Below are positions 3,116-39,584 of a stretch of 40,684 nt of DNA, piece by piece. Made by a program: the position numbers and the translations under genes. Under the pieces are notes generated by a model. That model did no database searches. It was not told where the DNA came from and saw nothing but the letters and a program-made list of their open reading frames with translations. Location: positions 1 to 40,684 of the forward strand of contig JABSSF010000003.1 of the NCBI GenBank assembly GCA_013214485.1, written 5' to 3'. Positions within the stretch are counted from its first letter, which is position 1. Each line of letters opens with the position of its first letter. The DNA is from Rickettsiaceae bacterium (GTDB lineage: Bacteria; Pseudomonadota; Alphaproteobacteria; Rickettsiales; Rickettsiaceae).

Positions 3116-3117
3116 TT

Positions 3118-4620: not shown

Positions 4621-5612
4621 ATTTTGCTGCATTAGAAACCTACTTACTACCGTTTAAAAACCTTTTCGATGAAGAAGGAGTTAATGAGGTTATGGTTAAT
4701 ACGCCAGGTGAAGTATGGGTTGAAAAAAAAGGCGATCAAAGACTTGAAAACGTTCCAGAATTAGATCTTGATCATTTATTAGGACTTGGTAGATTGGTGG
4801 CTCAATCTACAGATCAAAAAATTTCTGAGGAAAATCCATTACTTTCAGCAACTCTGCCAAATGGTTATCGTATTCAGGTTGTATTTCCACCAGCATGTGA
4901 ACCTGGAACAGTTGCTTATGCAATCAGAAAAGGTTCAACTATGAATCTAACCTTGGATGAATATGCAAAAATGGGAGCTTTTGACGATACGACAACCGAA
5001 GAAGCCGTTAATGAAGATGATAATATCTTGTGTAAATATTTAAAAGAAAAGAAAATTAAAGAATTTATTCGTCATGCAGTAATTTGTAAGAAAAATATTA
5101 TTATTAGTGGTGGAACTTCAACAGGAAAAACTACTTTTACTAATGCTGCTCTTAGTGAAATACCTGAAGGAGAAAGGTTAATTACAGTTGAAGATGCAAG
5201 AGAAGTATTATTAAATAAGCACCCAAATAGAGTTCATTTATTAGTATCGAAAGGTGGTCAAGGTAGAGCTAAAGTTAGTACTCAAGATTTAATAGAAGCT
5301 TGTCTTAGGCTCCGTCCTGATAGAATTATTGTTGGTGAATTAAGGGGTGCAGAAGCATTTAGTTTTCTTAGAGCAATAAATACTGGTCATCCAGGATCAG
5401 TATCTACTTTGCACGCTGATGCTCCTTCAATGGCTATTGAACAATTAAAACTTATGGTAATGCAGGCAGGACTTGGTATGCCACCTGAAGAAATTAGAAA
5501 TTATATTCTTTCAGTAGTAGATGTTGTTGTACAATTGAAAAGAGGTGGTGGTGGCAGGCGTTTTGTATCAGAAGTATATTTTAAGGGGTTAAGCGAGAAA
5601 AATGGGATTTAA
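4617..5612 (+). CDS. virB11: Type IV secretion ATPase VirB11
   Basis: Walker A GGTSTGKTT, DRIIVGELRG, HPGSVSTLHA. ATGA overlap with virB10. Confidence 0.95.
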   Translation: MNFAALETYLLPFKNLFDEEGVNEVMVNTPGEVWVEKKGDQRLENVPELDLDHLLGLGRLVAQSTDQKISEENPLLSATLPNGYRIQVVFPPACEPGTVAYAIRKGSTMNLTLDEYAKMGAFDDTTTEEAVNEDDNILCKYLKEKKIKEFIRHAVICKKNIIISGGTSTGKTTFTNAALSEIPEGERLITVEDAREVLLNKHPNRVHLLVSKGGQGRAKVSTQDLIEACLRLRPDRIIVGELRGAEAFSFLRAINTGHPGSVSTLHADAPSMAIEQLKLMVMQAGLGMPPEEIRNYILSVVDVVVQLKRGGGGRRFVSEVYFKGLSEKNGI

Positions 5613-7365: not shown

Positions 7366-7400
7366 ACTCTACTTAAGTAAAGTTAATATAGGGCAAAAAA

Positions 7401-8816
7401 ATGCGTTTAGGAATAATTGATATTGGCTTTAATGCTATTAGAGCAGTTGTTTATCATGATAGTAGTATTGGCGCTCCTGAGATATTTAATAATAAGTTTA
7501 AGAATGATATTTTAAGCTTACTTGAAAAAGAAGATCTAAACATTAAACATCAAACATATTTATCATTACAATATATCACTCACATATTTGCTAAACTATC
7601 TGTTACTGAAGTGAAATGTGTAGCTACAGCTGTACTTAGAGATCACCCTAAATCTGAAGAGTTTATTAAACATATCAAGGCTACATATGATTTAAACATT
7701 GAAGTGATAAGTGGCGACAGAGAAGCTTATCTTACTGCCCTTGGTTTAACTTCTGCCATTTATAACACAGACGGCATAGCTGCAGATCTAGGTGGTGGTA
7801 GTTTAGAACTTGCAGAAGTTAATGGTAGAGAGATTAATAAACTTGGTTCATTAAATATTGGTACAAAAGTTATCAATGCAAAGAAATTAAATAATATTGA
7901 TCTTATTATCAAAGTCATTACAGACGAATATGGTGACTTTCAATATGAAAATATCTATATGATTGGTGGAGCTTTACGTTTCATTGGTAGATTATTTTTG
8001 GATTATGTCAATTACCCAATTAAAAATTTACATAATCTGACTATAGATAGCAAGGAATTTGCTGATTATTTAGAAAAAATACAAAATCCAAATACCAATA
8101 ATGAAAAAAATAATAAACGAAAAATCAATTATAATGCAGTTATTGTAACCAGTGCAATGATTCAAGTATTTAAACCAAAGAATATTATTATTTCAACATT
8201 TGGCTTGAAAGAAGGAGTAAGATTTGAGTTATTAACAAAGGAAGAAAAGCAAAAAGATATTATTTTTGAGAAATTAAAACAAGTTTGTAATTGTGATACG
8301 ACAAAAACAGATTTTGATAGCTATATTAAAATAATATCAACCTTATTACCAAAAGAAAATAATGTAGATGATATTATTAGATATACAATAATTTTGACAT
8401 CGTTACCTAGATATTTTGACCATACCTTGCCGCCAGTAGCTATTTCTAATTTTGTATTATATTCAGAAATACCATTTCCTTATTATATGCGAATAATGTT
8501 GGCATTAATTTTATCATATATGTCTAACTTTAAACCCACTACTGAATTAATTAAACTTTCAAAGAAAATAATTAATAAGAGAAATCATCAGATTAGTCAG
8601 ATAATTGGTCATACCATGCGTATTGCAAAAGATGTAGACGGTGCAGAATTTACTACCCCATCTTTTTCTATACAACAAAAAGATGGATTTCTAGAAATAG
8701 CCAGTAACGATATTTTACCACGCCCTATATTTGAAAAAGTATGTGATCGTTTAAAATCTATTGCCTTTATTCGTAAAGCATTTTATTCTCAGAATAATGA
8801 TGGAAATAATCAATAA
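7401..8816 (+). CDS. Ppx/GppA family phosphatase (exopolyphosphatase / guanosine pentaphosphate phosphohydrolase-like)
   Basis: N-terminal actin-fold motifs GIIDIGFNAIRAVVY and AADLGGGSLEL. Confidence 0.75.
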   Translation: MRLGIIDIGFNAIRAVVYHDSSIGAPEIFNNKFKNDILSLLEKEDLNIKHQTYLSLQYITHIFAKLSVTEVKCVATAVLRDHPKSEEFIKHIKATYDLNIEVISGDREAYLTALGLTSAIYNTDGIAADLGGGSLELAEVNGREINKLGSLNIGTKVINAKKLNNIDLIIKVITDEYGDFQYENIYMIGGALRFIGRLFLDYVNYPIKNLHNLTIDSKEFADYLEKIQNPNTNNEKNNKRKINYNAVIVTSAMIQVFKPKNIIISTFGLKEGVRFELLTKEEKQKDIIFEKLKQVCNCDTTKTDFDSYIKIISTLLPKENNVDDIIRYTIILTSLPRYFDHTLPPVAISNFVLYSEIPFPYYMRIMLALILSYMSNFKPTTELIKLSKKIINKRNHQISQIIGHTMRIAKDVDGAEFTTPSFSIQQKDGFLEIASNDILPRPIFEKVCDRLKSIAFIRKAFYSQNNDGNNQ

Positions 8817-8830
8817 GAAATAATTAAACG

Positions 8831-9367
8831 ATGTTGCATAATACAGAAAATTCTTATGGCCTTATTACTAGACTACTTCATTGGATTATAGCTTTAATGA
8901 TTCTAGGCTTACTTGTAGTTGGTTTTACTATGGAGAGCATGGAACCCTCTGAGCAAAAATGGCAATTATACGGTTATCATAAAGCTACGGGCTTTTTTGT
9001 TTTTACTTTAGTTGCTATACGTATAGTTTGGCGTTTGATTAATGTAGAAGTATTACTACCAAAAGATATTCCACATTGGCAAGCTATGGCCTCTAAAATA
9101 ACTCATTATTTATTATATTTATTTATGTTCTTAATGCCTTTTAGTGGCATAATGATGAGTCGTTTAGGTGGCCATAACATTAATGTTTTCGATTTGTTTA
9201 CTATACCAGCAGCAACTAAAAATCCAGAATGGGCTGGTATTTTTCATAAAACACATGGTCTTGCAGCATATGGTATATCTGCTTTTATATTACTACATAT
9301 TGGAGCAGCACTATATCACCATTTTATCCGTAAGGATAATGTGTTAATGCGGATGATAAAGGAATAG
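8831..9367 (+). CDS. cybB: Cytochrome b561 family protein
   Basis: Four TM helices with conserved histidines (LLHWIIA, YHKATG, FHKTHG, HIGAALYHHF). Confidence 0.8.
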   Translation: MLHNTENSYGLITRLLHWIIALMILGLLVVGFTMESMEPSEQKWQLYGYHKATGFFVFTLVAIRIVWRLINVEVLLPKDIPHWQAMASKITHYLLYLFMFLMPFSGIMMSRLGGHNINVFDLFTIPAATKNPEWAGIFHKTHGLAAYGISAFILLHIGAALYHHFIRKDNVLMRMIKE

Positions 9368-9580: not shown

Positions 9581-10498
9581 TCAAAGAATTATAAGGCTTA
9601 AGAAGATAATGAAGAGATATAATATAGAGAACCAGAATAGTTTTTTAGCCTTTGCTAAATTATCATCCTTAAATAAACAGATAACATAATATAAGAAAGC
9701 AGCATCAAAGATACTAGCTATAATTAAATAACCGTGACCCCCCATATTATATATATATGGCATGATTGAACTTATTAATAGTAAAATAGTATAAAATAAA
9801 ATTTGCTTTTTAGTATAGGTAAAACCTTTAACAGCTGGCATCATTGGTACATTACAACTTTGATAATCTTTAGTTTTAAATATTGCTAGCGCCCAAGAAT
9901 GTGGCGGAGTCCAGAGGAAAATTATCATAAATAAAATTATGGCTTCTATGGAAATCTCACCAGTTACAGCAACAACCCCAATCATTGGTGGCAGAGCTCC
10001 TGCAACGCCACCTATTACAACATTCTGGATCGAATTACGCTTTAACCACATCGTATAAATGAAAATATAATATAAGATAGTAAATAATAACAATCCTGCT
10101 GCAAGAAAACTAACACAAAGTGCCATCATTAATACAGACATTACGGTAAGAACAATGCCAAAAGATAATGCTTCATCAGCCGCTATTTTGACTTGAACTA
10201 TTGGTCTTTTGCGTGTTCTAGTCATAATAGCGTCAATATCACGATCATACCACATATTAAGCGCTGCTGCTGCTCCTGATCCAGTCGTTACGCACAAAAT
10301 AGTAGCAAATGCAATTACTGGAGAAATAGTGCCTGGAGCTAAAATTATCCCACAAATAGCTGTAAATACTACCAAAGACATTACCCGAGGTTTCATCAAT
10401 AAGAAATAATCCTTAACCGAAGATGAGTCCACACTATCTGTGCTAGATTGCTCTAAATTTACTTTACTGCTTTGAGTTAAAGTTACTGATTTTTGCAT
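9581..10498 (-). CDS. ctaB: Protoheme IX farnesyltransferase (heme O synthase)
   Basis: UbiA-family polytopic membrane protein with [19 protein letters not shown]. Immediately downstream of ctaD. Confidence 0.9.
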
Positions 10499-10499
10499 C

Positions 10500-12089
<1,590 letters not shown>

Positions 12090-16866: not shown

Positions 16867-17616
16867 ATGCGTAAAGAATCTATTATCTCACTAGTTGTTC
16901 TATTAATATTTATATTATTACCAACTCCAGCTTTTGCTGAAGAATCTTTTGCTGAAGAATTAGATAACCTGCTTAGTAGTGGATCGATGACTAGTCGTAT
17001 CATGCAGCTATTTATGCTAATTACGGTACTGTCCTTAGCTCCTGCAATTTTAATCATGACTACTTCCTTTGTTAGAATTGCGATAGTATTCTCTATTCTC
17101 CGTTCTGCACTGGGCTTGCAGCAAACTCCACCAAATCAAGTGTTAATAAGTCTTGCACTTTTTCTCACATTTTTTATAATGTCACCAACATTGGAGCAAG
17201 CTTATGATGAAGGTCTGCGTCCTATGCTTGAGGAAAGTATTACTGAAGAAGAGGCTATGCCTTTAATAGTTGATCCATTTAAAAAATTTATGGTTGGTAA
17301 TACAAGAACCAAAGACCTTGATTTATTTATATCAATTTCTAAGGTAAAACCACCAAAGGAATTATATAATTTACCACTAAATGTGGTAGTCCCTGCTTTT
17401 CTAATTAGTGAATTAAAAAGGGGATTTGAAATAGGCTTTTTGATATTTTTGCCGTTTCTAATTATTGATATAGTAGTTGCTTCAATACTTATGGCAATGG
17501 GTATGATGATGATGCCACCAGTAATGATTGCTTTGCCATTTAAAATAGTATTCTTTGTTTTAGCCGATGGTTGGTATTTGCTTGCTGGCAGTCTAGTACA
17601 AAGTTTTACGATGTAA
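16867..17616 (+). CDS. fliP: Flagellar export gate protein FliP
   Basis: Signal peptide, then LAPAILIMTTSFVRIAIVFSILRSALGLQQTPPNQVL and FLISELKRGFEIGFLIFLPFLIIDIVVASILMAMGMMMMPP. Confidence 0.95.
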   Translation: MRKESIISLVVLLIFILLPTPAFAEESFAEELDNLLSSGSMTSRIMQLFMLITVLSLAPAILIMTTSFVRIAIVFSILRSALGLQQTPPNQVLISLALFLTFFIMSPTLEQAYDEGLRPMLEESITEEEAMPLIVDPFKKFMVGNTRTKDLDLFISISKVKPPKELYNLPLNVVVPAFLISELKRGFEIGFLIFLPFLIIDIVVASILMAMGMMMMPPVMIALPFKIVFFVLADGWYLLAGSLVQSFTM

Positions 17617-23716: not shown

Positions 23717-25447
23717 CTACTTATTATTATTTTGACCATAAACCAATTTAATTTTAGGAAATATAATTTTCACTTTTGTGCCTTCTCCTTTTTTACTTGT
23801 TATGATCAAACTAGCATCATGGGCATCTAATAACATTTTAACAATAGGTAACCCTAAGCCATATGATCCTCTAGAATGACTATTACTTCCTACTATACCA
23901 TAAGTACTTAAAGCTATTTCTATTTCATGTTCGTCCATACCAATACCTTCATCAATCACAGTTATTACTATCGTTTCTTCTACTAATTCTGCAACAATAT
24001 TTATATTGGTATTATCATTAGAATATTTGATAGCGTTACTGACTAAATTACTAAATATTTGTAACATTCGCCGCTTATCACAAATCACAAGCGGTAAATC
24101 TTTACTAAGCTTCTGATTAACAGTAATTTTTCTTTGATTATATCTTGCCAAATTAACTTTAATAGCTTCTTTTATAATGCTTTTAATATCTGCTGTGGAA
24201 TTAACAATTCTAAATCTTCCTTCAATTATTTGATTATCATCAAGTATATCAGTAATAAAATCGAGAATAATTTTTGAATTTTGGTGAATACCTTCAGCAT
24301 ATTTCATATAAGCTGCTGGCAAGTTACCTAACAATTCTTTTTTCATAATTTCTGAACCAGTTAAAATAAAACCAAGGGGAGATCTTACCTCATGCGCTGT
24401 AAAAGCAAGAAAATCAGTTTTAGCTTGTGTCGCATTATTAGCAACTATTGTTGCTTTTTCTGCTTTTTCTCGAAGTACTGCTTCTCTTTTATATAAAGAA
24501 ACTATTGAGAAAAAACAAACAATAGCAAGCACAGCCACTTCAATAAATCTTCTTGCAACGCTATCTAAAATATTTTGCTTGATAACATTATCATCAATAT
24601 TAACAATAATGATAAATGGCAAGCCACCTAAAGGTTTGATGTAGTAATTAATGCCATTAATCATATCTAGATAATGATGATCTGAATTGCTTTGTTTAAT
24701 TTTTAGATCTTTAATAATAGATTTCAAATTATTTGCAAGACCATTTTCATCAACTACATTATTAATGACTTCTTTGGATCTAGCAATAACATTATAATCA
24801 GTATCTATAATAATAAAATTAGCATCAATATTTCTTTTTATACTATTAAGACTTCTAACCAAAGTACCAATATCATAACTAAGTATTACTGAGCCTATAT
24901 ATTTATTACTATTTCCATCAACAATACTATCAATTATTTTCAGCTTACGTTCTTTTTCTTGAAAGCCAGTATAAAATGAAATTCCATAAGGATTACGTTT
25001 TGAAGGTGTTTTTACTATATCTTTTACATATTTTAAAAACTGAAAATTTTTTTTAAAATTTTTATTACTAGTAGCAACCTCCTTGAAATCTTTATTTACC
25101 CAACTATATTTGCGCCAACCAAAAAAATAGTTCAAATCTCGAGATTTAAAATTTTCCTGCAATAATTTTCTGATATATCGTGTATCATTGTGATGCTCCT
25201 TGATAGATTTTGAAATAATTCTAATAAAATACTGTGAGTAATTAATGCGATCTGTAAGTACTGTACCCAGATTGCTAGCTTCAATTTTTAACTCTTGTAA
25301 TACTAATTCTTTATTATTATGATATGTTCTAAAAAAATATAATAAAGTAAGACAAATAACTACAAATATAATTATTATTGTCAAAATATGAATATTCAGA
25401 TTATACCCCAAATGTTTTTTTTCCTTGTAATTACGATTTTTATTCAT
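23717..25447 (-). CDS. Sensor histidine kinase with a large periplasmic (Cache-like) domain; no adjacent response regulator
   Basis: TM1, about 250 aa periplasmic, TM2. H-box FLAFTAHEVRSPL, N-box SNLVSNAIKYS, G-boxes DEGIGM and GLGLPI. Confidence 0.9.
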   Translation of the reverse strand: MNKNRNYKEKKHLGYNLNIHILTIIIIFVVICLTLLYFFRTYHNNKELVLQELKIEASNLGTVLTDRINYSQYFIRIISKSIKEHHNDTRYIRKLLQENFKSRDLNYFFGWRKYSWVNKDFKEVATSNKNFKKNFQFLKYVKDIVKTPSKRNPYGISFYTGFQEKERKLKIIDSIVDGNSNKYIGSVILSYDIGTLVRSLNSIKRNIDANFIIIDTDYNVIARSKEVINNVVDENGLANNLKSIIKDLKIKQSNSDHHYLDMINGINYYIKPLGGLPFIIIVNIDDNVIKQNILDSVARRFIEVAVLAIVCFFSIVSLYKREAVLREKAEKATIVANNATQAKTDFLAFTAHEVRSPLGFILTGSEIMKKELLGNLPAAYMKYAEGIHQNSKIILDFITDILDDNQIIEGRFRIVNSTADIKSIIKEAIKVNLARYNQRKITVNQKLSKDLPLVICDKRRMLQIFSNLVSNAIKYSNDNTNINIVAELVEETIVITVIDEGIGMDEHEIEIALSTYGIVGSNSHSRGSYGLGLPIVKMLLDAHDASLIITSKKGEGTKVKIIFPKIKLVYGQNNNK

Positions 25448-27439: not shown

Positions 27440-28302
27440 TCATTTCGATTGACAAGTGTATAATTTAAAGGAGTGATCAATAGTTTGTTGTAGTGTATCA
27501 AATTGTGAGATAGTATTTTTTACTTTTTCTTTTAAATTAGCCCAAAATTTCTCTATTGGATTAAGATCTGGTGAATATGGTGGTAAAAACATTATTTTGC
27601 ATCCAGCACTTTCAATTAATTCTTTTGTTTTAAGTGATTTATGGAATGCTGCATTATCCATTATTACTAACTGTCCTGGTTTCAGCTCTGGCAATAAAAT
27701 CTTCTCTAGCCAAATATTAAATAATCCCGTGTTACACGTTCCTTGATAACAAAAAGGCGCCATAATTTTAGTACCACACTTAGCTGCTACAAAGCTCTCT
27801 CTAGCATAGCGTTTTCCAGAGTTTGTACCATGAACCAACTCTCCCCGTTTAGCCCAACCATGGGATTTATTTAAAAAACAATCTATCCCACTTTCATCAA
27901 TATAAACAAGGTTATCCTTAGATATATTTTTTATATTTTCTGTAAATATTTTTCGTTTTTTTTCATCCCGCTCTTTATACAGTATAGTCTTTTTTTTCTA
28001 GTAAAGCCCAAGCGTTTTAAAGCATCCCATACGCAGCTGATTGTTACGCCAAAATGGTTAGCATAATCTTTAATATATAAATCTGGATTAATTGTTACGT
28101 ATTCCTTTAAAAGCTAAGGGTTCAGCTTTCTCCATCCTCTTTTTAAAGGAGCATCTTCCAAATTACCATTTTGCTCAAGCATATCTAGCCATTTGTTCAG
28201 TGTCACTACTGATATTTCAAATAAACTACATGATTTTGATTGATTATTGCTTTTTTTATAGTGAGCAATTACACGTTTTCTGAATATTATTGGATATTTC
28301 AT
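27440..28302 (-). pseudogene. IS630-family DDE transposase, interrupted
   Basis: N-terminal HTH ORF (28114-28302) ends at an in-frame TAG at 28114-28116; copy 1 reads GAT (Asp) there. The downstream part needs a -1 frame change at the A8 run. The C-terminal part carries the DDE region (IMDNAAFHK, LPPYSPDLNPIEKFW). Confidence 0.8.
27990..27997 (-). promoter_or_regulatory. A8 slippery run at the junction of the two transposase frames (candidate programmed -1 frameshift or transcriptional slippage site)
   Basis: On the coding strand, act aga aaa aaa aga read in the -1 frame after the run gives KKK TILYKERDEKKR... and continues into the DDE domain. An identical T8 run on the plus strand is present in copy 1 at 12-19. 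Confidence 0.55.
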
Positions 28303-28515: not shown

Positions 28516-28833
28516 CTAATAAAGAGTTAATACTAATTTTTTATTTAATTTATTTTCAAGGATTACTTCATTTTCAGTAATTTCTGTTATAGTATAGATA
28601 TTATCTACAGTACTTCCTACATTAAAAATTTTACCATTAATCACACAAACTTTCTCATTTTCACTATCAACAATTGCAGAAAGCATATATTCTTTTTGTA
28701 ATTTTTTGGGAATATTTTTAACTTTTTCTTGTTTTGGCTTCATCGGGTCTATTAGCTTTTCTTCTGCCATACAATCGGGTTTTATAAAAAAAATAATTTG
28801 TATAATAATAATTTTAATTATTCTTACTTTCAT
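28516..28833 (-). CDS. PilP/MshK/GspB-like small periplasmic protein
   Basis: N-terminal hydrophobic leader. The C-terminal pattern LSAIVDSENEKVCVINGKIFNVGSTVDNIYTITEITENEVILEN...LVL is typical of MshK/PilP-type proteins. Last gene of the module. Confidence 0.45.
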   Translation of the reverse strand: MKVRIIKIIIIQIIFFIKPDCMAEEKLIDPMKPKQEKVKNIPKKLQKEYMLSAIVDSENEKVCVINGKIFNVGSTVDNIYTITEITENEVILENKLNKKLVLTLY

Positions 28834-29311
28834 ACAAACTCCTTAATTGTAATGATATATATAATGAATTATTTTTTTGTATTTTTAATTTTAAAGAGTC
28901 CAGACGGTAAAACATATTATTTTCATTTAAATGGATTAAATATTTAAGTAAACTAATATAATTACCTTCTAAAGACAGAGAATATCCAGCCTCTATAATA
29001 TCATTATTCTCCGGCATTATCGTATAACTAGATTTTTGGTTAAATATTTTTATATTATAAAGCGAAATAATATCGCTAAAATTCTCCTGAAGAACAAACG
29101 GAGCAGTAATTAGCATTGGATCTCTATAAGAGCTTATAAATCTATTATTTGCTTTATATTCCAAATAATTATTTAACATTTTTTTACCCTCATAAAATAA
29201 GGTAAAAATAATCAATATGTTAATAATAAAAAAACTATAAATTCTTAGCTGATAAAACGACTTCAGCTTCAAAATTATAGAAGATGCTACTATTCTCATC
29301 ATCCTCTTCAT
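28814..29311 (-). CDS. PilO/MshJ-like bitopic membrane protein
   Basis: One TM (IYSFFIINILIIFTLFY). C-terminal YSLSLEGNYISLLKYLIHLNENNMFYRLDSLKL...LYISLQL resembles the PilO/GspM fold signature. Overlaps the upstream gene by up to 77 nt. Confidence 0.45.
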   Translation of the reverse strand: MKRMMRIVASSIILKLKSFYQLRIYSFFIINILIIFTLFYEGKKMLNNYLEYKANNRFISSYRDPMLITAPFVLQENFSDIISLYNIKIFNQKSSYTIMPENNDIIEAGYSLSLEGNYISLLKYLIHLNENNMFYRLDSLKLKIQKNNSLYISLQLRSLYESKNN

Positions 29312-29810
29312 TATTATCCTCTAATGAATTTATGCCTTTATCTTTAAGAAATAACGCCACCGCAAAAGGCACGGGTGGTTTTTCTTGCTCCTCCTCTTCT
29401 TCCTCGATTTGTATTTGCTCTTTATTTTTAATCTTAACCGTTATAATTTGTACCTTTGCAAATTCTACTATTGAATTTAGATAGTCTTCAATTTCATCAT
29501 AATTAAGCGATCTGAGTGTAAGGAAAATTTCATTGCCTTCTAATTTCATCTTATGTACCCATAGATTCATAGTTTGCACCTTAGTAAATGCACTCATTAT
29601 TTCGATATATCGTGAAGATGATATCAGCATTCTATCATTTTGCATTTTTATTAATAAACTAGCTTTTCTACCTACGGATTCTTCATAATGTGGTACTAGC
29701 CATTTAATATTTGAATAATACATTCCCGCCACCATTAAAATTAAAATAAAAAATAATTTATATGACCCCAAAGGAAAAATAATTTTATTCTTTATCAATT
29801 CTTTTGCCAT
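29235..29810 (-). CDS. PilN/MshI-C-like bitopic membrane protein with an acidic insert
   Basis: Start moved to the internal ATG at 29810 (MAKELIK), just after the upstream stop. One TM. KMKLEGNEIFLTLRSLNYDEIEDYLNSI matches the PilN ferredoxin-like pattern. Contains an EEEEEEQEKPP insert. Confidence 0.5.
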   Translation of the reverse strand: MAKELIKNKIIFPLGSYKLFFILILMVAGMYYSNIKWLVPHYEESVGRKASLLIKMQNDRMLISSSRYIEIMSAFTKVQTMNLWVHKMKLEGNEIFLTLRSLNYDEIEDYLNSIVEFAKVQIITVKIKNKEQIQIEEEEEEQEKPPVPFAVALFLKDKGINSLEDNNEEDDENSSIFYNFEAEVVLSAKNL

Positions 29811-29814
29811 AAAA

Positions 29815-30831
29815 CTATTTTTTATTAACCCATTCATTTATTACTTTAGAGGCTAATTCCTTATTTATTGGTTTGAATATAACACTATTCATATCTACTT
29901 CCTTACAGTGTTTTACATAAGCCTCTGAATGGTTAGAAGTTAATCCAATAATTGGAATCCTTTTTAAATTTAATTCCTTTTCTCGTTGACGTATATTTAA
30001 AGTACATTCAAATCCATCCATTATAGGCATTTCACAATCCATGATAATTAAATCATAATCATGATTTTTTTCTAAATTATGTAAGGATTGTTGTGCGTTT
30101 GTTGATATTTCTACAGAAAGTTTTTGTTTAATTAATATAGATTTTAGAATTTTAGCATTTACCTTATTATCCTCAATGACTAACACTTTTTTAACATTCT
30201 TGTTAACTAATGGCATAATTATGAGCCAATATGTAAAAAGAATTAATATTAAACCTACTACTAGAGTAAATAACAATAACACTATTTCCACATGATATTT
30301 CATTAAATTTTTATCTTGATTGCAGGAACTAAAATTACTATCTAAATCAGTTAACAATTTATCTTTTATATATTCCAGTGAGGCTAAAAGATTTGGTTTT
30401 AAAGATTCATTAGAATTATCAGCTTCTATAAGATTTTCTGCATATTCTATAAGATTATTTACATCTTTAACTCTATTGGTAAAATTTAAATAATCTACTT
30501 TTTCCTTTGTTGTACCATTACTTAAATTAACTGATTTAATACAGATTAAAGAATCATTTAATGATTTCAATAACCTAGTATCTGTTATAATATTATCCTT
30601 TAAACATGAGCGAACATTTTGATCTTCAGTAAAAACTATATTAGTTGCGGTTATGGCGATTTTCTCAACCAAGATTCTATGCTTGGAAGCTAAATTAGAT
30701 TCAATTAAACTATTGTTAAAACTAAATATCAAAGATATTAATATAATGTATAATGATATCAATATCATTATCATTGTGAAGTTAATAGCTTTATATTTTT
30801 GTTGTAAAAATTCGTTTATTTGATGAATCAT
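29815..30831 (-). CDS. Membrane-anchored stand-alone receiver (REC) domain protein: TM, about 150-aa extracytoplasmic domain, TM, REC
   Basis: TM1 MIMILISLYIILISLIFSF and TM2 LLLFTLVVGLILILFTYWLIIMPL. About 8 aa after TM2 a complete CheY-like receiver begins (VLVIEDN, DLIIMDCEMPIMDG, IIGLTS, FKP). No HisKA/HATPase and no output domain. Confidence 0.8.
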   Translation of the reverse strand: MIHQINEFLQQKYKAINFTMIMILISLYIILISLIFSFNNSLIESNLASKHRILVEKIAITATNIVFTEDQNVRSCLKDNIITDTRLLKSLNDSLICIKSVNLSNGTTKEKVDYLNFTNRVKDVNNLIEYAENLIEADNSNESLKPNLLASLEYIKDKLLTDLDSNFSSCNQDKNLMKYHVEIVLLLFTLVVGLILILFTYWLIIMPLVNKNVKKVLVIEDNKVNAKILKSILIKQKLSVEISTNAQQSLHNLEKNHDYDLIIMDCEMPIMDGFECTLNIRQREKELNLKRIPIIGLTSNHSEAYVKHCKEVDMNSVIFKPINKELASKVINEWVNKK

Positions 30832-30967: not shown

Positions 30968-32695
30968 TTAAAGTTTATATGACCCAATATCCTCTCTATC
31001 ATCAAAACTATTCACTATAGTTGGTTTTATAAGTACTATAACTTCTATTTTTTTACTGGCATTTCTGTTAGCAGAAAATAAATTAAAAATACGTCCTATT
31101 CCTTTATCATGTTCAAATGGTAAACCAGACCTATTAGTACTTACCATATCTTGAGTCATTCCTCCTAATATAATTATATCACCACTAAATGATTTAACTA
31201 CAGTATCAACTTCCCTGGATAAAATCATTGCTACAGGTATCCTTGAATCCCTATTATCAATCTTAATTAATTTATCTTCATCATCTACTCTACTAATCAT
31301 CGGATGAATGTGCATTATTACTTCATCATTACTTATAATATTAGGAGTTGCTTCTAATGCAACACCAGAAAAGATTGGCTCTAGGTCAAACCCCGATTGA
31401 GTATTAGCATTATCGGAATTTAAATTAGTTGTCAGGTTAGTAACATTAGTGACAAAATATTTATCCTCACCACTTTTTATTAAAGCTCTTTGATTATTTA
31501 AAACTGCAATACGCGGCGATGAAATCACTGATAATTTACCTTGAGTTTTCAATGCTTGCATTACCATATTAAAATCTTTTGCCGCAATTCTACCACTTAA
31601 AACATTATTTAAACTTAATTCATCTCCAGCAATATTAGAAGTATTATGTAAATTATTAATAGAGTCAAACGGAGCACTTACTGCTGCAAGTGATGATTGC
31701 CTTAGATCATTTTTTAACGTATCCCATTGAATGCCATTACTAAATTCTTCTCTTAATTCTACTTCCAGTATTTTAGCTTCAATTATTATTTGCCTTGTCG
31801 AATTCTTATTTACTTTATTTAAAAAATTCTTAATTAACCTTTGCTGACTTGGCATAGCACTTACAACTACTAGACCACTTTCACGATAAACATAAAATTC
31901 CTCAACTTTATTATCTCTATCATTATTTGTACTTGTTACTAAACTAGCTGGAGTAGATGCAGTTTGCCCTGTTGGTTGCCCTTCTCCTGTTACATCTATT
32001 AAAGCTATCGTATTTTTTGTTGTTGATTTTAAAATACTTCTAATAGTATTTTCTACGCTACCCCAAAAATTATCTTCTGACTCTGATTTTATAGTAGAAT
32101 AATTATCGCTTTCTTCATCTTCTTTAAGGGTGCTGCTAACAATAGAAATTGATGATTTTCCTTTCCTCTTAAAATTATGATAATTAACTTCATAAGTAAT
32201 GGTTTGTATTTGTGGTAAATATAAAGTATAACCATAATCTAAATCTTTTACACCAATATCATATATTTCTGTTAAACTATCCAGTACATCAGCTAAACAA
32301 ACATCATGTAAATTCAAAGTCAGTCCTTTAGCTTGGTTTAAATTTGCTGCATAGTTAATATTTTCTTTATAGGTATAGCTTAATAAAGTTGCTAATTCCC
32401 TTAATTTAATATCTTTAGTAACAATATTAGCTTTTTTGCATAAAGGACGTTGCTCTTTAAATGGATTGTCAAAAACTAAAACATTGTTCTCAGATGAGTC
32501 TTTTTCATTCTTATAAAATTCATTAAATTTTTTGATATCATTAGTAAATTTTTCTGAATATTTAGTAGTACTACAACTATTTAAAAACAAAAAAGTAATT
32601 ATAATATAAGGAATAACTCTCTTTTTATAAAAAAAGTATAAAGAATTCAGACTTAAATTCTTTATACTTTTAAATTGTGGTTTATAAAATAACAT
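30968..32695 (-). CDS. Secretin, MshL/PilQ type, probable lipoprotein
   Basis: Start placed at the internal ATG 32695, 4 nt after the upstream stop. Lipobox-like FLFLNSC. Secretin core QIIIEAKILEVEL, VISSPRIAVLNNQRALIKSGEDKYFVT, LEATPNI, IIILGGM, GLPF, VIVLIKPTIV. Confidence 0.85.
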   Translation of the reverse strand: MLFYKPQFKSIKNLSLNSLYFFYKKRVIPYIIITFLFLNSCSTTKYSEKFTNDIKKFNEFYKNEKDSSENNVLVFDNPFKEQRPLCKKANIVTKDIKLRELATLLSYTYKENINYAANLNQAKGLTLNLHDVCLADVLDSLTEIYDIGVKDLDYGYTLYLPQIQTITYEVNYHNFKRKGKSSISIVSSTLKEDEESDNYSTIKSESEDNFWGSVENTIRSILKSTTKNTIALIDVTGEGQPTGQTASTPASLVTSTNNDRDNKVEEFYVYRESGLVVVSAMPSQQRLIKNFLNKVNKNSTRQIIIEAKILEVELREEFSNGIQWDTLKNDLRQSSLAAVSAPFDSINNLHNTSNIAGDELSLNNVLSGRIAAKDFNMVMQALKTQGKLSVISSPRIAVLNNQRALIKSGEDKYFVTNVTNLTTNLNSDNANTQSGFDLEPIFSGVALEATPNIISNDEVIMHIHPMISRVDDEDKLIKIDNRDSRIPVAMILSREVDTVVKSFSGDIIILGGMTQDMVSTNRSGLPFEHDKGIGRIFNLFSANRNASKKIEVIVLIKPTIVNSFDDREDIGSYKL

Positions 32696-32699
32696 TAAT

Positions 32700-33266
32700 T
32701 TATCTTCCGCCACCACTTGGAAGTCCACCGCCTGAGAATAAATTCTCATAATTAATATATGTACAAACTGACAAATATTTATTATCGGTTTCATCTCTGA
32801 TAAATGACGCAGTGAATTCTTTAGTACTGTTACTTCCCATAAATTCTTCTACATTTCTATCGGCATTAGTTAAACATTCCCAAGCAGTAATTTTTTCATC
32901 CTTGTGATTATAAATAGGAATTAAAAGTATCTGCTTACCTAATAATGCTTTAGCTACTGGTGTAACATGACCTTTACTACCTTTTTTTGCCATACCATTA
33001 AATTGAAATTCAATTTTATAGTCTTTAGAAATATTTAATATTGTAATATAAGGATTTTCTTCATTTTTTAACACACTATACGTACTTCTTAAGTGGTTAC
33101 CATGATTTTCCTCATAAAGACGCTCAGCCTGCTTTACTGCTCCGTAGATTGCGCTATCAACATTGCTTAGAGTAGCTTTTGCACCTGCTAATTTAGCACC
33201 AAAAGCTGTACTAGTTGTTAGAGCTAAGATAGTTCCAGTTAGTAAACATAAAGTTTTTTTCTTCAT
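32700..33266 (-). CDS. Type IVa pilin head-domain-like protein with a Sec-type signal peptide instead of a prepilin leader
   Basis: MKKKTLCLLTGTILALTTSTAFG then AKATLSNVDSAIYGAVKQAERLY (alpha1-C-like). C-terminal ITAWECLTNAD...KYLSVCTY resembles the disulfide-bonded D-region (WxC...KYLPxxC) of PilA/PilE. No G/FTLIE motif and no Glu5. Confidence 0.5.
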   Translation of the reverse strand: MKKKTLCLLTGTILALTTSTAFGAKLAGAKATLSNVDSAIYGAVKQAERLYEENHGNHLRSTYSVLKNEENPYITILNISKDYKIEFQFNGMAKKGSKGHVTPVAKALLGKQILLIPIYNHKDEKITAWECLTNADRNVEEFMGSNSTKEFTASFIRDETDNKYLSVCTYINYENLFSGGGLPSGGGR

Positions 33267-33601: not shown

Positions 33602-34327
33602 ATGAAGAAATGTATCACAACTGTATTTTATTTACTAGATAATTTTTGTAAAGAATATGAAAAATGGCAAAATAAAAATCTCTTACCACAAAATGGTATA
33701 AGAAAACGAGAAGGAAAATTACGACTTTCAGAGTTATTAACTATAGTGTTATATTATTATTTATCTCCCTGTAAAGACTTTAAGAACTACTATTTATATT
33801 ACTTATCAAGTAAATATAAAGGTTATTTTAAATTACCATGTTACAGTCGTATAGTACAACTAATGCCAAGACTTATACTACCATTATCAATAGTAATGCA
33901 AATCTTATCAGGAAGAGAAACAGGCACTTATTATATTGATTCTACAAAATTACAAATATGTCATAATAAACGAACTTCTAGTAATAGAGTTTTTAATAAA
34001 ATTTCTAAATTAGGACGCAGTAGTTATGGCTGGTTTATGGGATTTAAACTACATATGATAATTAATAATAAAGGAGAAATTATGGCAATAAAAATTAGCA
34101 AAGAAAATAAAAGTGATCTATCAGCAGTTAAAGATTTAGTTAAAGGATTAAACGGTACTATTTATGGGGATAAGGGATACATTTCCCGAAAACTATTTGA
34201 AGAGTTATATAGTTCTGGACTAAAGATATTTACTAGTATACGTAAGGATATGAAAAATCACTTACTTAATAATAGTGATAAATATTTTATGCGTAAAAGG
34301 GTTTTAATTGAATGTGTTTTTAAATAA
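33602..34327 (+). mobile_element. IS982-family transposase gene, 3'-truncated (remnant)
   Basis: The N-terminal and DDE-region pattern (YIDSTKLQICHNKR, GWFMGFKLHMIIN, IYGDKGYIS) is typical of IS982. The ORF stops at ...LIECVFK, roughly 50 aa short of family members as I recall them. Element ends were not identified. Confidence 0.65.
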
Positions 34328-35250: not shown

Positions 35251-35655
35251 ATGTCTAAAAAATTAGAAAATCAACCCAAAAGGGAAAATAATGAAAATCA
35301 AAAAAATAAACCTGATAAAAATAACAACAAAGATAAACATTTAAGAAAATTAAATGAAAATCTTAACAAACTTGATGAAAAACCAATATTTGACGATATT
35401 AATAAAGCTAGTGATGAAGATAAACATAAATTAAAACAATATCCTAATTTTGATAACTTAAGTAAGGAAGAACAAGAAGACTTAATAAAACAAGCCAAAC
35501 AAGCTAAAGATAGACATGAAGAAAATAATAGTCGTCATGCTGAGCAAACAAGAGAGTATTTGAAGGAGCGAACTGAATTAGTTAGAATGTCTGAATTACT
35601 AGAACATGTTTTTAATAATTTAAAATTTAGTCAATTTATAAAGGCTATAAAATAG
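35251..35655 (+). CDS. Hypothetical highly charged K/E/N-rich protein (134 aa)
   Basis: RBS acaggag 8 nt upstream. Low-complexity N-terminal two thirds and a more ordinary C-terminal helix (TELVRMSELLEHVFNNLKFSQFIKAIK). Confidence 0.4.
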   Translation: MSKKLENQPKRENNENQKNKPDKNNNKDKHLRKLNENLNKLDEKPIFDDINKASDEDKHKLKQYPNFDNLSKEEQEDLIKQAKQAKDRHEENNSRHAEQTREYLKERTELVRMSELLEHVFNNLKFSQFIKAIK

Positions 35656-36811: not shown

Positions 36812-38323
36812 ATGCAAAAAGCTATTAAAGCAATTATATTATCTAGAGTATCATCAAAAGATCAAGAAGATGGTTATTCATTAGAAGTACAAACAGATAG
36901 ATTAGAAAAATATTGCGATCGCAGGGGACTTCATATTATCAAACGTTATCAAATAGTAGAATCTTCTACTAAAGGAGACCGCAAGCAATTTATGGAAATT
37001 ATTAAATTTATTAAGTCGCAGCGTGAACCGATAGCATTTGTTGCAGATAAGGTTGATAGAATACAAAGAAGCCAAAAAGAAACCCCCATATTAGATGATA
37101 TGATAAGACAAGGGAAATTAGAATTACATTTTAATAGCGAAAGTTACATTATTCATCAGGAATCAAGCGCTCACGAGTTAATGATGTGGGGTATGGGAGT
37201 TGTAGTTGCTAAAAGCCATACTGATTTACTCAGTGAAAATGTCAAAAAAAGTTTAAAACGTAAAGTAGAAGCCCATGGAGAGTGGTATGGCTCAGCACCT
37301 ATAGGCTATTTAAATCAACGTGATCAGCGTGGTAGGGGTATAATAGTTACTGACCCTATATCGGCATCAATTGTTACAAAATTATTTGCAGAATTTGCAA
37401 CTGGAGTTTATACTTTATCACAAATGGTAACAAAAGCTAAAGAATGGGGGTTACGCAGTAAAAAAGGGGGGTATGTAAATAAGTCTGTTCTACATCGTAT
37501 GTTTAGAAACCCTTTTTATTATGGTCAAATGAGATTTAAAGGCGAACTATGGACACATAACTATGAGAGATTAACTACAATAGAAACATTTAAAAAATGC
37601 GAGGCAACACTTATGGGCTGGAAGAAAAAACCTTTTCAATATCGAGGTAAAGAATTCTTATTTAGAGGTTTATTAACTTGTAAGACAACTGGCAAATTGG
37701 TTCTTAGTGATACTAAAGTAAAGAAATACCCAAGTCGCAAAAAATCAGAGTGGACTTATTTAATAGCATATGACCCAAAAAACTCAAAAAAGAAAATTTG
37801 GGTAAGAGAAGACAAAGTTATCAAACAATTAGAAGAAGTACTAAAAAATTTAGCTATAAAAGATGAAAAAATCCTAAAACAAACCATGGAGTATTTAACA
37901 GCGGTAAATGAAGGCAAAAAACACGATTTTAATAGAGAAGTTGGTGCATTAAAGCAAGAACACGCAAATATTCAGAATAAGCTTGATAAGCTATTAGATT
38001 TACTCGCTGAAGGGGTTTTGACTAAAGAGGAATTTTTAACCAAGAAAAATAAATATAAAGAACGTCAGCACGAGTTAACAGAATTATTACAAACTTATGA
38101 CAAGATTGATGATAAATTTTCTAAAAAGCTGCTAGAGGTTATAAACATTACTAATGAAGTTTATGATACTTTTAAGGGTTCAAAAATTTCTGAAAAAAGG
38201 CAATTATTAAAGTTCATGTTCTCGAACCTTTTTCTGGGGCAGCGGAGTGCTAGAGTACAGCTGGACTTTTCCATATCTAGTGAACTGGCAAAATTAACCA
38301 ATTGTGTACTTCCTGAGAGATAG
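36812..38323 (+). CDS. Large serine recombinase (resolvase/invertase catalytic domain + recombinase domain + coiled coil); 3' end probably altered by IS insertion
   Basis: Catalytic region AIILSRVSSKDQEDGYSLEVQ, VADKVDRIQRS. Recombinase domain PIGY, NPFYYG. C-terminal coiled coil. The last roughly 9 codons lie inside the IS481 left end. Confidence 0.85.
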   Translation: MQKAIKAIILSRVSSKDQEDGYSLEVQTDRLEKYCDRRGLHIIKRYQIVESSTKGDRKQFMEIIKFIKSQREPIAFVADKVDRIQRSQKETPILDDMIRQGKLELHFNSESYIIHQESSAHELMMWGMGVVVAKSHTDLLSENVKKSLKRKVEAHGEWYGSAPIGYLNQRDQRGRGIIVTDPISASIVTKLFAEFATGVYTLSQMVTKAKEWGLRSKKGGYVNKSVLHRMFRNPFYYGQMRFKGELWTHNYERLTTIETFKKCEATLMGWKKKPFQYRGKEFLFRGLLTCKTTGKLVLSDTKVKKYPSRKKSEWTYLIAYDPKNSKKKIWVREDKVIKQLEEVLKNLAIKDEKILKQTMEYLTAVNEGKKHDFNREVGALKQEHANIQNKLDKLLDLLAEGVLTKEEFLTKKNKYKERQHELTELLQTYDKIDDKFSKKLLEVINITNEVYDTFKGSKISEKRQLLKFMFSNLFLGQRSARVQLDFSISSELAKLTNCVLPER

Positions 38324-39572
38324 TATGCAGAAAATTCCGAAGACATAGTATACACTTTTTTCATTTGCGAGGTAGCATATGACATGGAAGGAGTGTAGTA
38401 AAATGGACGAGAAATTAAAGTTTGTAGCAAGATTGTTAGAAGGAGAAAAGATTGCAGTGTTATGCCGTGAGTTTGGTATTACAAGGCGCACAGGTTATAA
38501 GATATTTAATCGCTATAAAGACTACGGTCTTGAAGGCCTTCAAGACCGTAGTGGCAAGCCCTATAGACATGCAAATCAATTACCATACCAAATTGAGAGA
38601 GCAATATTGGGTATAAAGAAGGAATATCCAAGTTGGGGAGCCCCTAAAATTAAGGAAAAATTGTTACGTCAATTTCCTGATATTAAACATCCTGCTATTA
38701 GCACAATACATGCGGTGCTAGATCGTAATGGTTTAGTAAAAAGACAAAAACGTAGACGATATAAAGCACAAGGAACAGAGCTTCTGGAACATAACAGCAT
38801 CAATAGTCTTTGGTGTTGTGACTACAAAGGAGAGTTTATGCTTGGTAATAAAGAATATTGTTACCCTTTGACCATTACAGATTATCATTCACGATATTTG
38901 CTTGCTTGCGAAGGGCAAGAATCTACAAAAGAACAAGGAGCATTTGCTGTTTTTGAAAGCGTTTTTAGAGAGTTTGGATTACCTGATACTATTCGCAGTG
39001 ATAATGGTATACCTTTTGCATCTCCAAATGCCTTATATGGTTTAAGCAAATTATCCGTTTGGTGGCTTAGACTCGGCATAAAAATAGAAAGAATTAAACC
39101 TGGTAACCCTCAACAAAATGGCCGTCACGAACGAATGCATAGAACTCTAAAACAAGATACTGCCAAACCTCCAGCATTTAATCTTCTGCAACAACAAGAA
39201 AAATTTGATCATTTTCAGAAAGTATACAATTATGAGCGTCCTCATCAAGCTATTGCTAACAAATACCCTGCAGAACTGTATACACCTTCTACTAGAGTTT
39301 ATAAAGGATTACCAGATATTGATTATCCTTTTGCTGATAAAATTGTTACCATTACAAAATGTGGAAGAATATGTATTGGAAAAAAGAAAATCAGTGTAAG
39401 TAGTGTATTTGCTGGACAAAATGTTGGTATTTCTCAAGTTGATGATAAAATTTGGCTTGTACAATTCATGCTTTATGATATAGGATACTTTGATATGGAT
39501 ACTTGTAGGCTAGAACCTATTGATAATCAGCTTACCTCGAAACTGTATACCATGCCTCCAGAATGTACCATT
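38296..39572 (+). mobile_element. IS481-family insertion sequence
   Basis: Imperfect terminal inverted repeats: left aaccaattgtgtacttcctgagagatagtatgcag; reverse complement of right aatggtacattctggaggcatggtatacag. Flanked by a 7-bp direct repeat caaaatt (38289-38295 and 39573-39579). Alternative boundaries 38298-39581 (ccaatt/aattgg) cannot be excluded. Confidence 0.6.
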
Positions 39573-39584
39573 CAAAATTGGTGA
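38403..39584 (+). CDS. IS481-family DDE transposase (integrase core domain)
   Basis: Start at the internal ATG 38403 after aaggag. N-terminal HTH (IAVLCREFGITRRTGYKIFNRY). DDE triad contexts WCCDYKG, IRSDNGIPF, NGRHERMHRTLK. The stop codon lies 3 nt inside the tRNA 3' end. Confidence 0.85.
   Translation: MDEKLKFVARLLEGEKIAVLCREFGITRRTGYKIFNRYKDYGLEGLQDRSGKPYRHANQLPYQIERAILGIKKEYPSWGAPKIKEKLLRQFPDIKHPAISTIHAVLDRNGLVKRQKRRRYKAQGTELLEHNSINSLWCCDYKGEFMLGNKEYCYPLTITDYHSRYLLACEGQESTKEQGAFAVFESVFREFGLPDTIRSDNGIPFASPNALYGLSKLSVWWLRLGIKIERIKPGNPQQNGRHERMHRTLKQDTAKPPAFNLLQQQEKFDHFQKVYNYERPHQAIANKYPAELYTPSTRVYKGLPDIDYPFADKIVTITKCGRICIGKKKISVSSVFAGQNVGISQVDDKIWLVQFMLYDIGYFDMDTCRLEPIDNQLTSKLYTMPPECTIQNW

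Follow-up and report, generated by a model that had tools for sequence, protein, structure and literature searches.

The window analysed here, a stretch of 40,684 nucleotides from a Rickettsiaceae bacterium (contig JABSSF010000003.1 of assembly GCA_013214485.1), carries on its reverse strand a gene whose product, P0001, joins a Sec signal peptide to a domain resembling the globular head of a type IVa pilin. Next to it stand a lipoprotein secretin gene and genes that recall the PilN, PilO and PilP scaffold of type IV filaments. An earlier note, drawn from the letters of this DNA, had described P0001 as a pilin head in which the Sec signal takes the place of the class III leader and polymerisation helix, and had proposed that it might be a soluble cargo or plug for the adjacent secretin. 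Head, secretin and scaffold genes together appear to form a conserved, mobile, motor-less and Sec-fed derivative of type IV filament machinery that is apparently undescribed; a full-text literature search, which was not exhaustive, found no description of a Sec-type pilin, of a motor-less secretin module or of a Rickettsiales secretin or pilus.

The head gene and its Sec-type leader

The features of the head gene and of the protein it encodes are the following.

32700..33266 (stop codon included), minus strand: gene for the Sec-type, pilin-head-like precursor P0001, identified by open reading frame (ORF), family, AlphaFold2 (AF2) model and Foldseek
33198..33266, minus strand: signal peptide, residues 1-23, read from the sequence, with n-region MKKK, h-region TLCLLTGTILAL and c-region TTSTAFG
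33108..33182, minus strand: amphipathic helix, residues 29-53, equivalent of pilin alpha1-C (DSSP on the model, H29-35 and H37-53; predicted local distance difference test score, pLDDT, 96-98)
32868..33047, minus strand: alpha-beta loop with the conserved N71-P-Y73, and four-strand sheet 74-79, 85-89, 112-118 and 128-133 (AF2 model)
32763..32876, minus strand: C-terminal loop, equivalent of the pilin D-region, with motifs WECLTNAD and NKYLSVC, probably closed by a Cys131/Cys168 disulfide (invariant cysteine columns)
32703..32732, minus strand: glycine-rich tail GGGLPSGGGR, disordered in the model (pLDDT about 32-50 for the last residues) and found in no homolog

The ORF of P0001 starts with ATG, encodes 188 aa and allows no in-frame upstream extension. 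The protein is laid out as MKKK-TLCLLTGTILAL-TTSTAFG and then, beyond the predicted cut, AKLAGAKATLSNVDSAIYGAVKQAERLYEENHG ... ITAWECLTNAD ... NKYLSVC ... GGGLPSGGGR. The elements picked out by the earlier note can all be read in it: the leader (MKKK-TLCLLTGTILALTTSTAFG followed by A), the helix (AKATLSNVDSAIYGAVKQAERLY) and the WxC...KYLxxC loop, which corresponds to W129-E-C131 and N-K-Y-L-S-V-C168. The glycine-rich tail is also present in P0001, but it is not a feature of the family, whose other C-termini vary.

Type 4 pilins in the sense of Pelicic (PMC10191384) have a short basic class III leader that ends in Gly(-1) and is cut before Phe1 or Met1, an alpha1-N segment with Glu5 that anchors the protein in the membrane and forms the core of the filament, processing and N-methylation by PilD-family enzymes, and an alpha/beta-roll head. 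P0001, whose N-terminus reads MKKKTLCLLTG..., has neither Gly(-1)-Phe1 nor Glu5, and is predicted to be cleaved by signal peptidase I, probably between AFG and A. We scored the leaders of the family in an alignment of 72 full-length sequences, which was also used for conservation and for the AF2 model. The class III motif, written as the regular expression [GAS][FMLIVY][ST][LIVM][LIVMT]E, occurs in the first 50 residues of none of the 72 members, and any G-x4-E in a single one. A signal-peptidase-I site with small residues at -3 and -1 (AFA, ALA, SLA, AYA, SMA and similar) is found in 70 of the 72, where it closes an uncharged run whose median length is 20 residues; this run is composed of a hydrophobic core of ~11-15 residues and then a polar c-region, and the n-regions have net positive charge. 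The hydrophobic alpha1-N of ~21 residues with Glu5 that distinguishes type IV pilins is lacking from the family. Because the class III motif is absent from every member and the -3/-1 site present in nearly all, the leader is, as judged from sequence, an ordinary Sec/signal-peptidase-I leader throughout the whole family. The earlier claim that a Sec leader replaces the class III leader, with no Glu5, is thus extended from P0001 to its relatives. With the class III leader and the alpha1-N/Glu5 segment both missing, the head family is not to be filed as pilin.

Two further ideas about the N-terminus were considered. That the head might be a lipoprotein was ruled out, since a lipobox occurs in only 2 of the 72 members, as chance matches. 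A donor-strand role for an N-terminal extension is weakened by the short distance, only ~4-8 residues, between the cleavage site and the helix cap G-x-x-G-T-L-x-N.

Six close homologs of P0001 (43-59% identity), all without annotation, were returned by a word-indexed search, to which the 72-sequence profile added few others. An exhaustive hidden Markov model (HMM) search of 1.84 billion representatives recovered 97 cluster representatives (50% identity) at E<1e-3; of these, 71 pass E<1e-10 and 24 pass E<1e-30, and the length is 160-240 aa in nearly all. Cys131 and Cys168 are the only invariant columns of the alignment, while Y83, P117 and T133 are nearly invariant, and the family consensus contains G-x-x-G-T-L-x-N-I, E-x-N-x-G, N-P-Y, W-E-C-x-T-N-A-D and Y-L-x-x-C. 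Exactly two cysteines are present in 60 of the 72 mature proteins. None of the 72 members matches a Pfam family; P0001 is unmatched in NCBIfam and among PDB sequences, where single-protein queries and profiles of 7 and 72 sequences alike returned noise only; and tblastn with two family members found no copy among the PLSDB plasmids. The head family is under strong purifying selection. Between two plasmid-borne copies of 84% identity the ratio of nonsynonymous to synonymous substitution rates (dN/dS) of the head gene is 0.11, the lowest value among the five cassette genes (0.11-0.28). The mature heads are mostly acidic, with a median isoelectric point (pI) of 5.0, and on this ground the idea of a DNA receptor or ratchet like ComP or ComEA was rejected.

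Several members depart from this common plan. A higher-GC subfamily comprises P0049, P0054, P0055, P0066, P0068, P0075 and P0101, and includes the locus L005 (10001-12182; 40% GC), which adjoins the gene of a large ankyrin-repeat protein. The three paralogs of L005 have an extra C-terminal cysteine pair and a distinct 'LRGLRG..A...LP..VA.ERAEDLY' helix, and P0054 reaches 290 aa in total through a Cys-rich extension. In P0052, a protein of 2541 aa, 23 separate stretches match the family profile, the best of them in the helix region (profile positions 30-65); P0052 could be a repeat protein of a similar amphipathic helix, or the matches could be a compositional artefact.

Likeness of the head to type IVa pilins

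A first AF2 model, built from 7 sequences, was poor (pLDDT 62), but its top Foldseek match was still a pilin, 1qve of strain K122-4 (E 0.56). With the 72-sequence alignment the model improved to pLDDT 86.2 and a predicted template-modelling score (pTM) of 0.80, and shows the helix 29-53, four strands and a C-terminal loop ending in a short strand that holds C168. Among 350,542 PDB chains, Foldseek ranked Neisseria PilE first (8p3b: E 9.3e-3, probability 0.99, TM-score 0.40/0.46, 127 columns, 20% identity) and PilE again second (5vxx_A: E 0.09, probability 0.77), and beyond these two PilE chains nothing in the PDB fell below E 2; a viral structure library gave no fold match. The pilin-like head that the earlier note had read from the sequence is consistent with this result, in which a confident model has PilE as its only non-random PDB match.

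Profile comparisons, for which the PilE and K122-4 reference sequences were checked against their PDB entries, reveal a likeness to type IVa pilin heads that is weak but consistent. When the family is aligned to gonococcal PilE by hhalign, family positions 45-132 pair in register with PilE 44-122, and C131 lies at the end of strand 4, like PilE C121. The family HMM gives the K122-4 head 11.3 bits, a score reached by 1 of 2000 shuffles, in an alignment that pairs 'VATPLRGKTLTLT..GSYTWACTSNAD' of K122-4 with 'PVAKALLGKQILLIP..KITAWECLTNAD' of the family; the head block 'PVAKALLGKQILLIP..ITAWECLTNAD' stands opposite 'VATPLRGKTLTLT..YTWACTSNAD' of K122-4. Against an alignment of 89 type IVa pilin sequences hhalign returned P 0.006, on the block '...L.GK.L.L...W.C.T.AD'. 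The PF07963 N_methyl domain is present in nearly all of the genuine pilins that we collected, the exceptions being a few N-terminally truncated entries, and trimming to the head domain on both sides guards against an artefact of the hydrophobic N-terminus. The head-only HMM scored the 89 real pilin heads at a median of 4.4 bits, as against -1.2 for shuffles, and 54% of the real heads exceeded the 99th percentile of the shuffles (3.6 bits); reversed sequences reached at most 3.5. Under permissive settings hhalign aligns the family with pilins collinearly from the leader through to the C-terminus, as the note had stated. No single sequence test passes a database-wide threshold, and jointly the tests are weak but consistent, pointing in the same direction as the fold search. 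We consider the identity of a globular pilin-like head to be well supported, and P0001, which resembles the head of a type IVa pilin, probably descends from one.

The likenesses to the type IVa major pilins (PilE and PilA; PF00114 and PF07963) comprise a sheet of four antiparallel strands with an alpha1-C helix on it, and a two-cysteine C-terminal loop, where the W-x-C-x-T/S-N-A-D and (N)K-Y-L-x-x-C motifs are almost identical to WACTSNADNKYLPKTC of K122-4. Unlike these pilins, the head family has a cleavable Sec signal and lacks the class III leader, Gly(-1), Phe1, Glu5 and the membrane-spanning alpha1-N; it also has an insertion of ~25 residues between the NAD and KYL motifs, and no match to a Pfam pilin model.

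In the alignments, residue i of the precursor corresponds to residue i-1 of the mature pilin, and it follows that the signal peptide and about five further residues fill the place of alpha1-N. The simplest reading of this correspondence would be a conversion in situ, in which a prepilin's hydrophobic segment became shorter, lost the Gly(-1)/Phe1/Glu5 site from its cytoplasmic end and gained an AxA site at the periplasmic one.

The secretin module, its carriers and its missing motor

The remaining genes of the window cassette lie downstream of the head gene, on the same strand.

30968..32695, minus strand: lipoprotein secretin of MshL type with lipobox FLNS-C (Pfam Secretin 2.3e-27, Secretin_N_2 3.8e-5; TIGR02519)
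29815..30831, minus strand: membrane-bound receiver-domain protein with two transmembrane segments, a periplasmic region and a C-terminal receiver (REC) domain (Pfam Response_reg 9e-23)
29235..29837, minus strand: PilN-like bitopic inner-membrane protein, 200 aa (Pfam match of the L007 ortholog, and synteny)
28814..29311, minus strand: bitopic protein in the PilO/MshJ position, 165 aa (position and size conserved in all cassettes)
28516..28833, minus strand: small exported protein, 105 aa, with a putative secretin-binding-type beta-domain resembling PilP, GspC-HR, GspB or the SctD C-terminus (sub-threshold matches)

The secretin that the earlier note had placed next to the head gene is the downstream neighbour, and its PF00263 score is above the Pfam cut-off. 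Against TIGR02519 (MshL) it scores 207.4 bits (2e-61, model positions 4-290 of 290), below the cut-off of 250.2 bits; MshL is the closest family of this secretin, yet by the NCBI threshold it is not a member. The likely start codon is the ATG at 32695, 4 nt past the stop codon of the head gene, which yields a lipoprotein signal, and lipoboxes are present on all cassette secretins, orthologs included. The longest ORF reaches 32794; with its additional stretch (32696-32794) it covers 95 nt of the head gene's 3' end, and automatic annotation would be likely to make the secretin gene too long.

The PilN-like protein of the window has no direct Pfam match and belongs to its orthogroup by HMM (4e-68); the L007 ortholog matches Pfam PilN, PF05137, at 4.5e-5 (23.9 bits, cut-off 22.8), and the family profile matches M. 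xanthus PilN in 3jc8 with E 0.2. For the protein in the PilO position no Pfam or PDB match was found, and its hhalign comparison with the PilN-like family was not significant. Among 11 orthologs of the P-like protein, CdsD_C is matched by nine (best 1.8e-7), T2SSB by eight and Y4YQ_C by five, all below the curated cut-offs, and there are weak NCBIfam matches to GspC and SctD. A contact chain from PilQ through PilP and PilO to PilN is documented in known systems (PMC3724824).

The gene of the receiver-domain protein, which has neither an output nor a kinase domain, lies between the secretin and PilN-like genes. Orthologs occupy the same place in L001 (3016-4041) and L011 (478-1482) and are absent from the other loci, so that the protein is confined to this subclade. 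At 23717-25447 of the window, 4 kb from the receiver gene and on the same strand, lies the gene of a dCache-HisKA-HATPase sensor kinase, which could be the partner of the receiver-domain protein.

We fetched 26 other locus records by looking up exact proteins and by scanning genomes and metagenomes, and searched all of their ORFs with HMMs from the five cassette proteins. Two records, L002 and L010, are one contig, which leaves 25 distinct loci. In 23 of these the head gene is beside at least part of the module, in the order head-secretin-(REC)-N-O-P or N-O-P-head(s)-secretin; in L017, a 1-kb contig, the flank is too short for module linkage to be judged. The module consists of five genes, encoding the liposecretin, the PilN-like protein, the PilO-position protein, the PilP/GspC-HR-like protein and the head, the last in one to four copies. 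Tandem head paralogs number two in L012 and L018, three in L005 and four in L024, and are 31-85% identical within a locus. They are mostly closest to one another within their own locus, and conserved orthogroups of the major/minor kind were not seen among them. In L024 the four diverged paralogs (5141-9062; 31-44% identical) follow the N-O-P genes, and no secretin gene is present in the 17.7 kb of this locus, from which we conclude that the secretin can be encoded elsewhere. In L020, a 66-kb contig of Rickettsiales type, the reading frame of the head gene (9941-10540) shifts beyond codon ~105, with neighbouring secretin and N/O/P genes intact; this is either a pseudogene or an assembly error.

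The carriers that can be placed are Rickettsiales-like, which fits the order that the earlier note had in mind. The window has a GC content of 30% and carries virB8-9-10-11 and virD4, cytochrome oxidase genes and fliP, which indicates a flagellated Rickettsiales-like organism. L004 comes from a Rickettsiaceae metagenome-assembled genome (MAG), and a second Rickettsiaceae MAG, GCA_021741085.1, has two distant family members, one in an N-O-P-head cassette and the other with no module gene nearby. L020 has a gene for a putative ATP/ADP translocase, so named on visual inspection of the N-terminal sequence, and L024 a gene with DUF2671, which we take to be a Rickettsia-associated domain. The remaining family members are metagenomic proteins.

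The module also occurs on a plasmid. The two ends of L008 (1-11389) overlap by 141 bp, and L007, from another sample and another assembler, is a rotation of the same sequence, giving a circle of 11,248 bp to which L016 and L009 are related. Besides the five-gene cassette (6018-9443 on L008) the circle encodes only Rep3, a Tn3 transposase, a resolvase and a CopG-type toxin-antitoxin pair. The plasmid head protein is indexed in 30 blocks of a public collection, and the plasmid is found in many samples.

Genes for a motor were looked for in the fetched DNA of the contigs and MAGs. A phmmer search of all ORFs of the fetched loci with a T2SSE-family query found no ATPase of this family except the window's own VirB11, and no assembly ATPase lies within the 10-20 kb flanks of five chromosomal loci. 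Neither the precomputed Pfam neighbourhoods nor a Pfam scan of the 40-kb window contained a platform protein (T2SSF), PilM or a prepilin peptidase. The cytoplasmic tails of the PilN-like proteins are ~5-35 residues long (the shortest, in L004 and L005, ~5-10) and have no conserved PilM-binding motif of the INLLP type. Since ATPase, platform protein, PilM and peptidase were not found and the PilN-like tails are short, the module as encoded appears to have no cytoplasmic face.

In msh loci the gene order is mshI-J-K-L, for proteins like PilM/N, PilO and PilP and for the MshL secretin. The cassettes resemble this part of the MSHA system in that their secretin is nearest to MshL and that the N-O-P-secretin order of L004, L005 and L023 (N-O-P also in L024) parallels mshI-J-K-L. 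They differ in the placement of the head gene, which lies between the P-like and secretin genes or ahead of the secretin gene; in having no MshE ATPase, MshG platform protein, MshM/N or class III MshA pilins near the module; and in a secretin that scores 207 bits where 250 are required. In other words, the module is like the outer machinery formed by PilNOPQ or MshIJKL, but the ATPase, platform protein and peptidase are missing from the DNA examined. Stand-alone channels such as the DNA-uptake porin of HofQ type, and self-piloting lipoprotein secretins, offer another comparison: the cassette secretin has its own lipobox, no pilotin is encoded, and there is a weak NCBIfam match to HofQ (3e-9). 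Unlike these channels, however, it is accompanied by an N/O/P-like scaffold and a soluble head, and the acidity of the heads argues against a DNA receptor.

Role of the head in the module

We think it probable that P0001 and its relatives are soluble periplasmic pilin heads that act as gate ligands, as plug or opener, of a motor-less secretin conduit with its origin in type IV filaments; the suggestion of the earlier note, a soluble periplasmic partner, cargo or plug of the secretin, is consistent with all that was found. The mechanism would run as follows. Cut by signal peptidase I, the protein would enter the periplasm as a soluble mature form of ~165 aa and there fold into a four-strand sheet bearing a helix, with C131 and C168 oxidised to a disulfide. 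Because alpha1-N and Glu5 are missing, the head could neither lodge in the inner membrane nor serve as a substrate of a prepilin peptidase, and it could not be built into a filament. By itself or together with its paralogs, it would instead be captured by the periplasmic domains of the N/O/P-like scaffold and docked below the secretin gate, the normal place of a pilus or pseudopilus tip. The docked head, which might form a small homo- or hetero-oligomeric cap, would either plug the gate or open it, and the state of the conduit would be set by occupancy rather than by ATP-driven polymerisation. In the subclade of the window, the membrane-bound receiver protein encoded in the operon may place the conduit under phosphorelay control.

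A number of observations weigh against this proposal. Known secretin gates are opened by the push of a filament, a needle or a phage, and we know of no precedent for the use of a secretin without a motor. The fold match is modest (TM-score 0.40-0.46, root-mean-square deviation 4.5 A), the sequence signal is weak, with no Pfam, NCBIfam or PDB-sequence match, and the PilO-like protein is assigned by position, size and its N-terminal transmembrane segment alone. Head genes without module genes in the fetched DNA occur in L013 (7386-7904), L022 (10001-10615) and L026 (6102-6734), where they lie among housekeeping genes (uvrC/mdh, sspB/obg, and near rpsD). The carriers are contigs and MAGs, and an ATPase, platform protein or peptidase may be encoded elsewhere in their genomes. 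Finally, the cleavage, the disulfide, the periplasmic location and the docking at the secretin are all steps that we infer.

Proteins with a Sec signal cleaved by signal peptidase I are known to work with, or to exit via, a pilus or secretin; they include the PilY1/PilC tip adhesins, TcpF and CofJ. Like the head, they are Sec-dependent partners of a secretin machine, but they have no pilin fold and need an ATP-driven pilus, whereas in the module the pilin fold belongs to the Sec-dependent protein itself, and no motor was found. A published source places PilY1/PilC in the context of Sec-dependent partners of type IV pili (PMC13533445). A second point of comparison is the tip complex of the T2SS (type II secretion system), GspH/I/J/K or XcpU/V/W/X, whose minor pseudopilin heads, truncated in the laboratory to start at residue 28-29 and without E5, still assemble a specific complex, the one turned towards the secretin gate (PMC6211770). 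The mature head described here is naturally of this kind, a pilin-fold head free of a transmembrane segment, beginning near residue 24 and helical from residue 29 on, and it too may come in a set, with up to four tandem paralogs. The truncations of GspH-K are laboratory-made, however, and the native forms are membrane-anchored and PilD-processed, while here the truncation is natural; no homology of the head family to the GspH-K subfamilies was detected.

Among other explanations, the one that fares best is that the head is an exported cargo or adhesin that crosses the outer membrane via the secretin and acts on the surface or in the host, its pilin likeness being a signal for recognition by the scaffold. 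The tight linkage to the secretin gene is what such a protein would show, the plasmid-borne mobile module has the character of an accessory trait, and the divergent tandem paralogs (31-56% identity), with their variable C-terminal tails and insertions, recall an outward-facing protein. However, no energy source is encoded for the passage of a folded protein through a gated secretin, and with its dN/dS of 0.11 the head is the most conserved cassette gene, not the most variable; for these two reasons we disfavour this reading. The mostly acidic mature proteins also have no recognisable adhesin or enzyme domain. We regard an exported cargo as unlikely, while keeping it in view.

A different objection is that the head might not be a pilin relative at all, and that an unrelated small periplasmic alpha/beta protein, for instance a pilotin-like protein or an accessory of the secretin scaffold, has come to resemble one by convergence. 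The Foldseek E-values of only 9e-3 and 0.09, the TM-scores below 0.5 and the lack of a database-level profile match to Pfam Pilin or to PDB pilins would allow this. Yet pilins are the sole fold matches of two independent models, the sequence signal from pilin heads is consistent and independent of the hydrophobic N-terminus, the order of helix, sheet, W-x-C and Y-L-x-x-C is shared with a numbering offset of 1 from mature PilE, and the genomic context is one of type IV filament scaffold genes. In the face of these agreements convergence seems distinctly improbable.

We also considered a conventional pilus with its motor supplied in trans, in which the leader stays uncleaved or PilB, PilC and PilD are encoded elsewhere, and the head is an atypical membrane-anchored, perhaps minor, pilin. 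The MAGs and contigs are incomplete, the protein is collinear with prepilins and has its h-region at the position of alpha1-N, and the presence of several paralogs recalls the sets of major and minor pilins. This idea is opposed by the leaders, with cores of ~11-15 residues, polar c-regions, AxA sites in 70 of 72 members and no Gly(-1), Phe1 or Glu5; by the closed 11.2-kb plasmid, which has the module and no motor genes; by PilN-like tails too short for PilM binding; and by the 10-20 kb flanks of five chromosomal loci, which have no ATPase. There is, in our view, little chance that it is correct. That the cassette is a decaying remnant of a type IV pilus or MSHA system in a reductive genome, with no current function, is very improbable: gene loss in host-restricted Rickettsiales, the insertion-sequence (IS) debris around the window cassette and the one frameshifted copy in L020 suggest decay, but 97 diverged representatives have intact ORFs, all five genes are under purifying selection (dN/dS 0.11-0.28), and one gene layout is met again in different lineages and on a plasmid that many samples contain.

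Four parts define type IV filaments: a pilin with a class III leader, a prepilin peptidase, a platform protein and an ATPase. None of these four parts is present in the module's fetched DNA, where head, secretin and scaffold are kept under purifying selection. If the module works as a unit, as our proposal of a head that gates the secretin supposes, a pilin fold and a secretin would be usable free of a motor, and the five genes, in ~4.5 kb, would provide a natural minimal system in which to consider the roles of the PilN/O/P scaffold and of the secretin gate. Such a unit would imply a simple evolutionary path by which a class III signal-anchor becomes a cleavable class I signal, and would add an uncharacterised envelope structure to aquatic Rickettsiaceae, in whose host-interaction machinery the rvh type IV secretion system is otherwise seen as dominant.

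The proposal can be taken further. Chaperone-usher and type V pili are extruded by the energy of folding or binding, and the cassette might likewise be a self-contained ATP-independent machine, in which soluble heads, brought by Sec as one to four paralogs to an N/O/P-like periplasmic platform, form a short fibre or cap that is extruded via the liposecretin by folding or binding energy, or hold the secretin open as a regulated conduit for large solutes in an endosymbiont. We put this forward as a speculative idea with rather low prospects. If true, it would be the first use of a pilin fold and a secretin without prepilin peptidase, platform protein and ATPase, and its origin would lie in the shift of a cleavage site from the N- to the C-terminal end of one hydrophobic segment.

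The surroundings of the cassette in the window contain other genes of interest. At 659-7365 a Fic-domain protein gene is followed by virB8-virB9-virB10-virB11-virD4, an rvh-type type IV secretion locus, and flagellar fliP lies at 16867-17616. A scan for promoters in this 26% GC DNA was uninformative (47 sites where 39 are expected), and a scan for terminators found none. Mobile-element genes bracket the cassette at 27440-27838 and 28114-28302 (minus strand) and at 33602-34327, 36812-38323 and 38379-39584 (plus strand). They comprise a DDE_3 transposase fragment with a small upstream ORF, a truncated IS4/IS5-type DDE_Tnp_1_3 transposase, a large serine recombinase and an IS481-type integrase. 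The GC content of the cassette equals that of its surroundings, and composition thus gives no sign of recent acquisition. Amid these mobile-element genes, at 35251-35655 on the plus strand, lies the gene of a 134-aa protein without a family match that is very rich in Lys, Glu and Asn.

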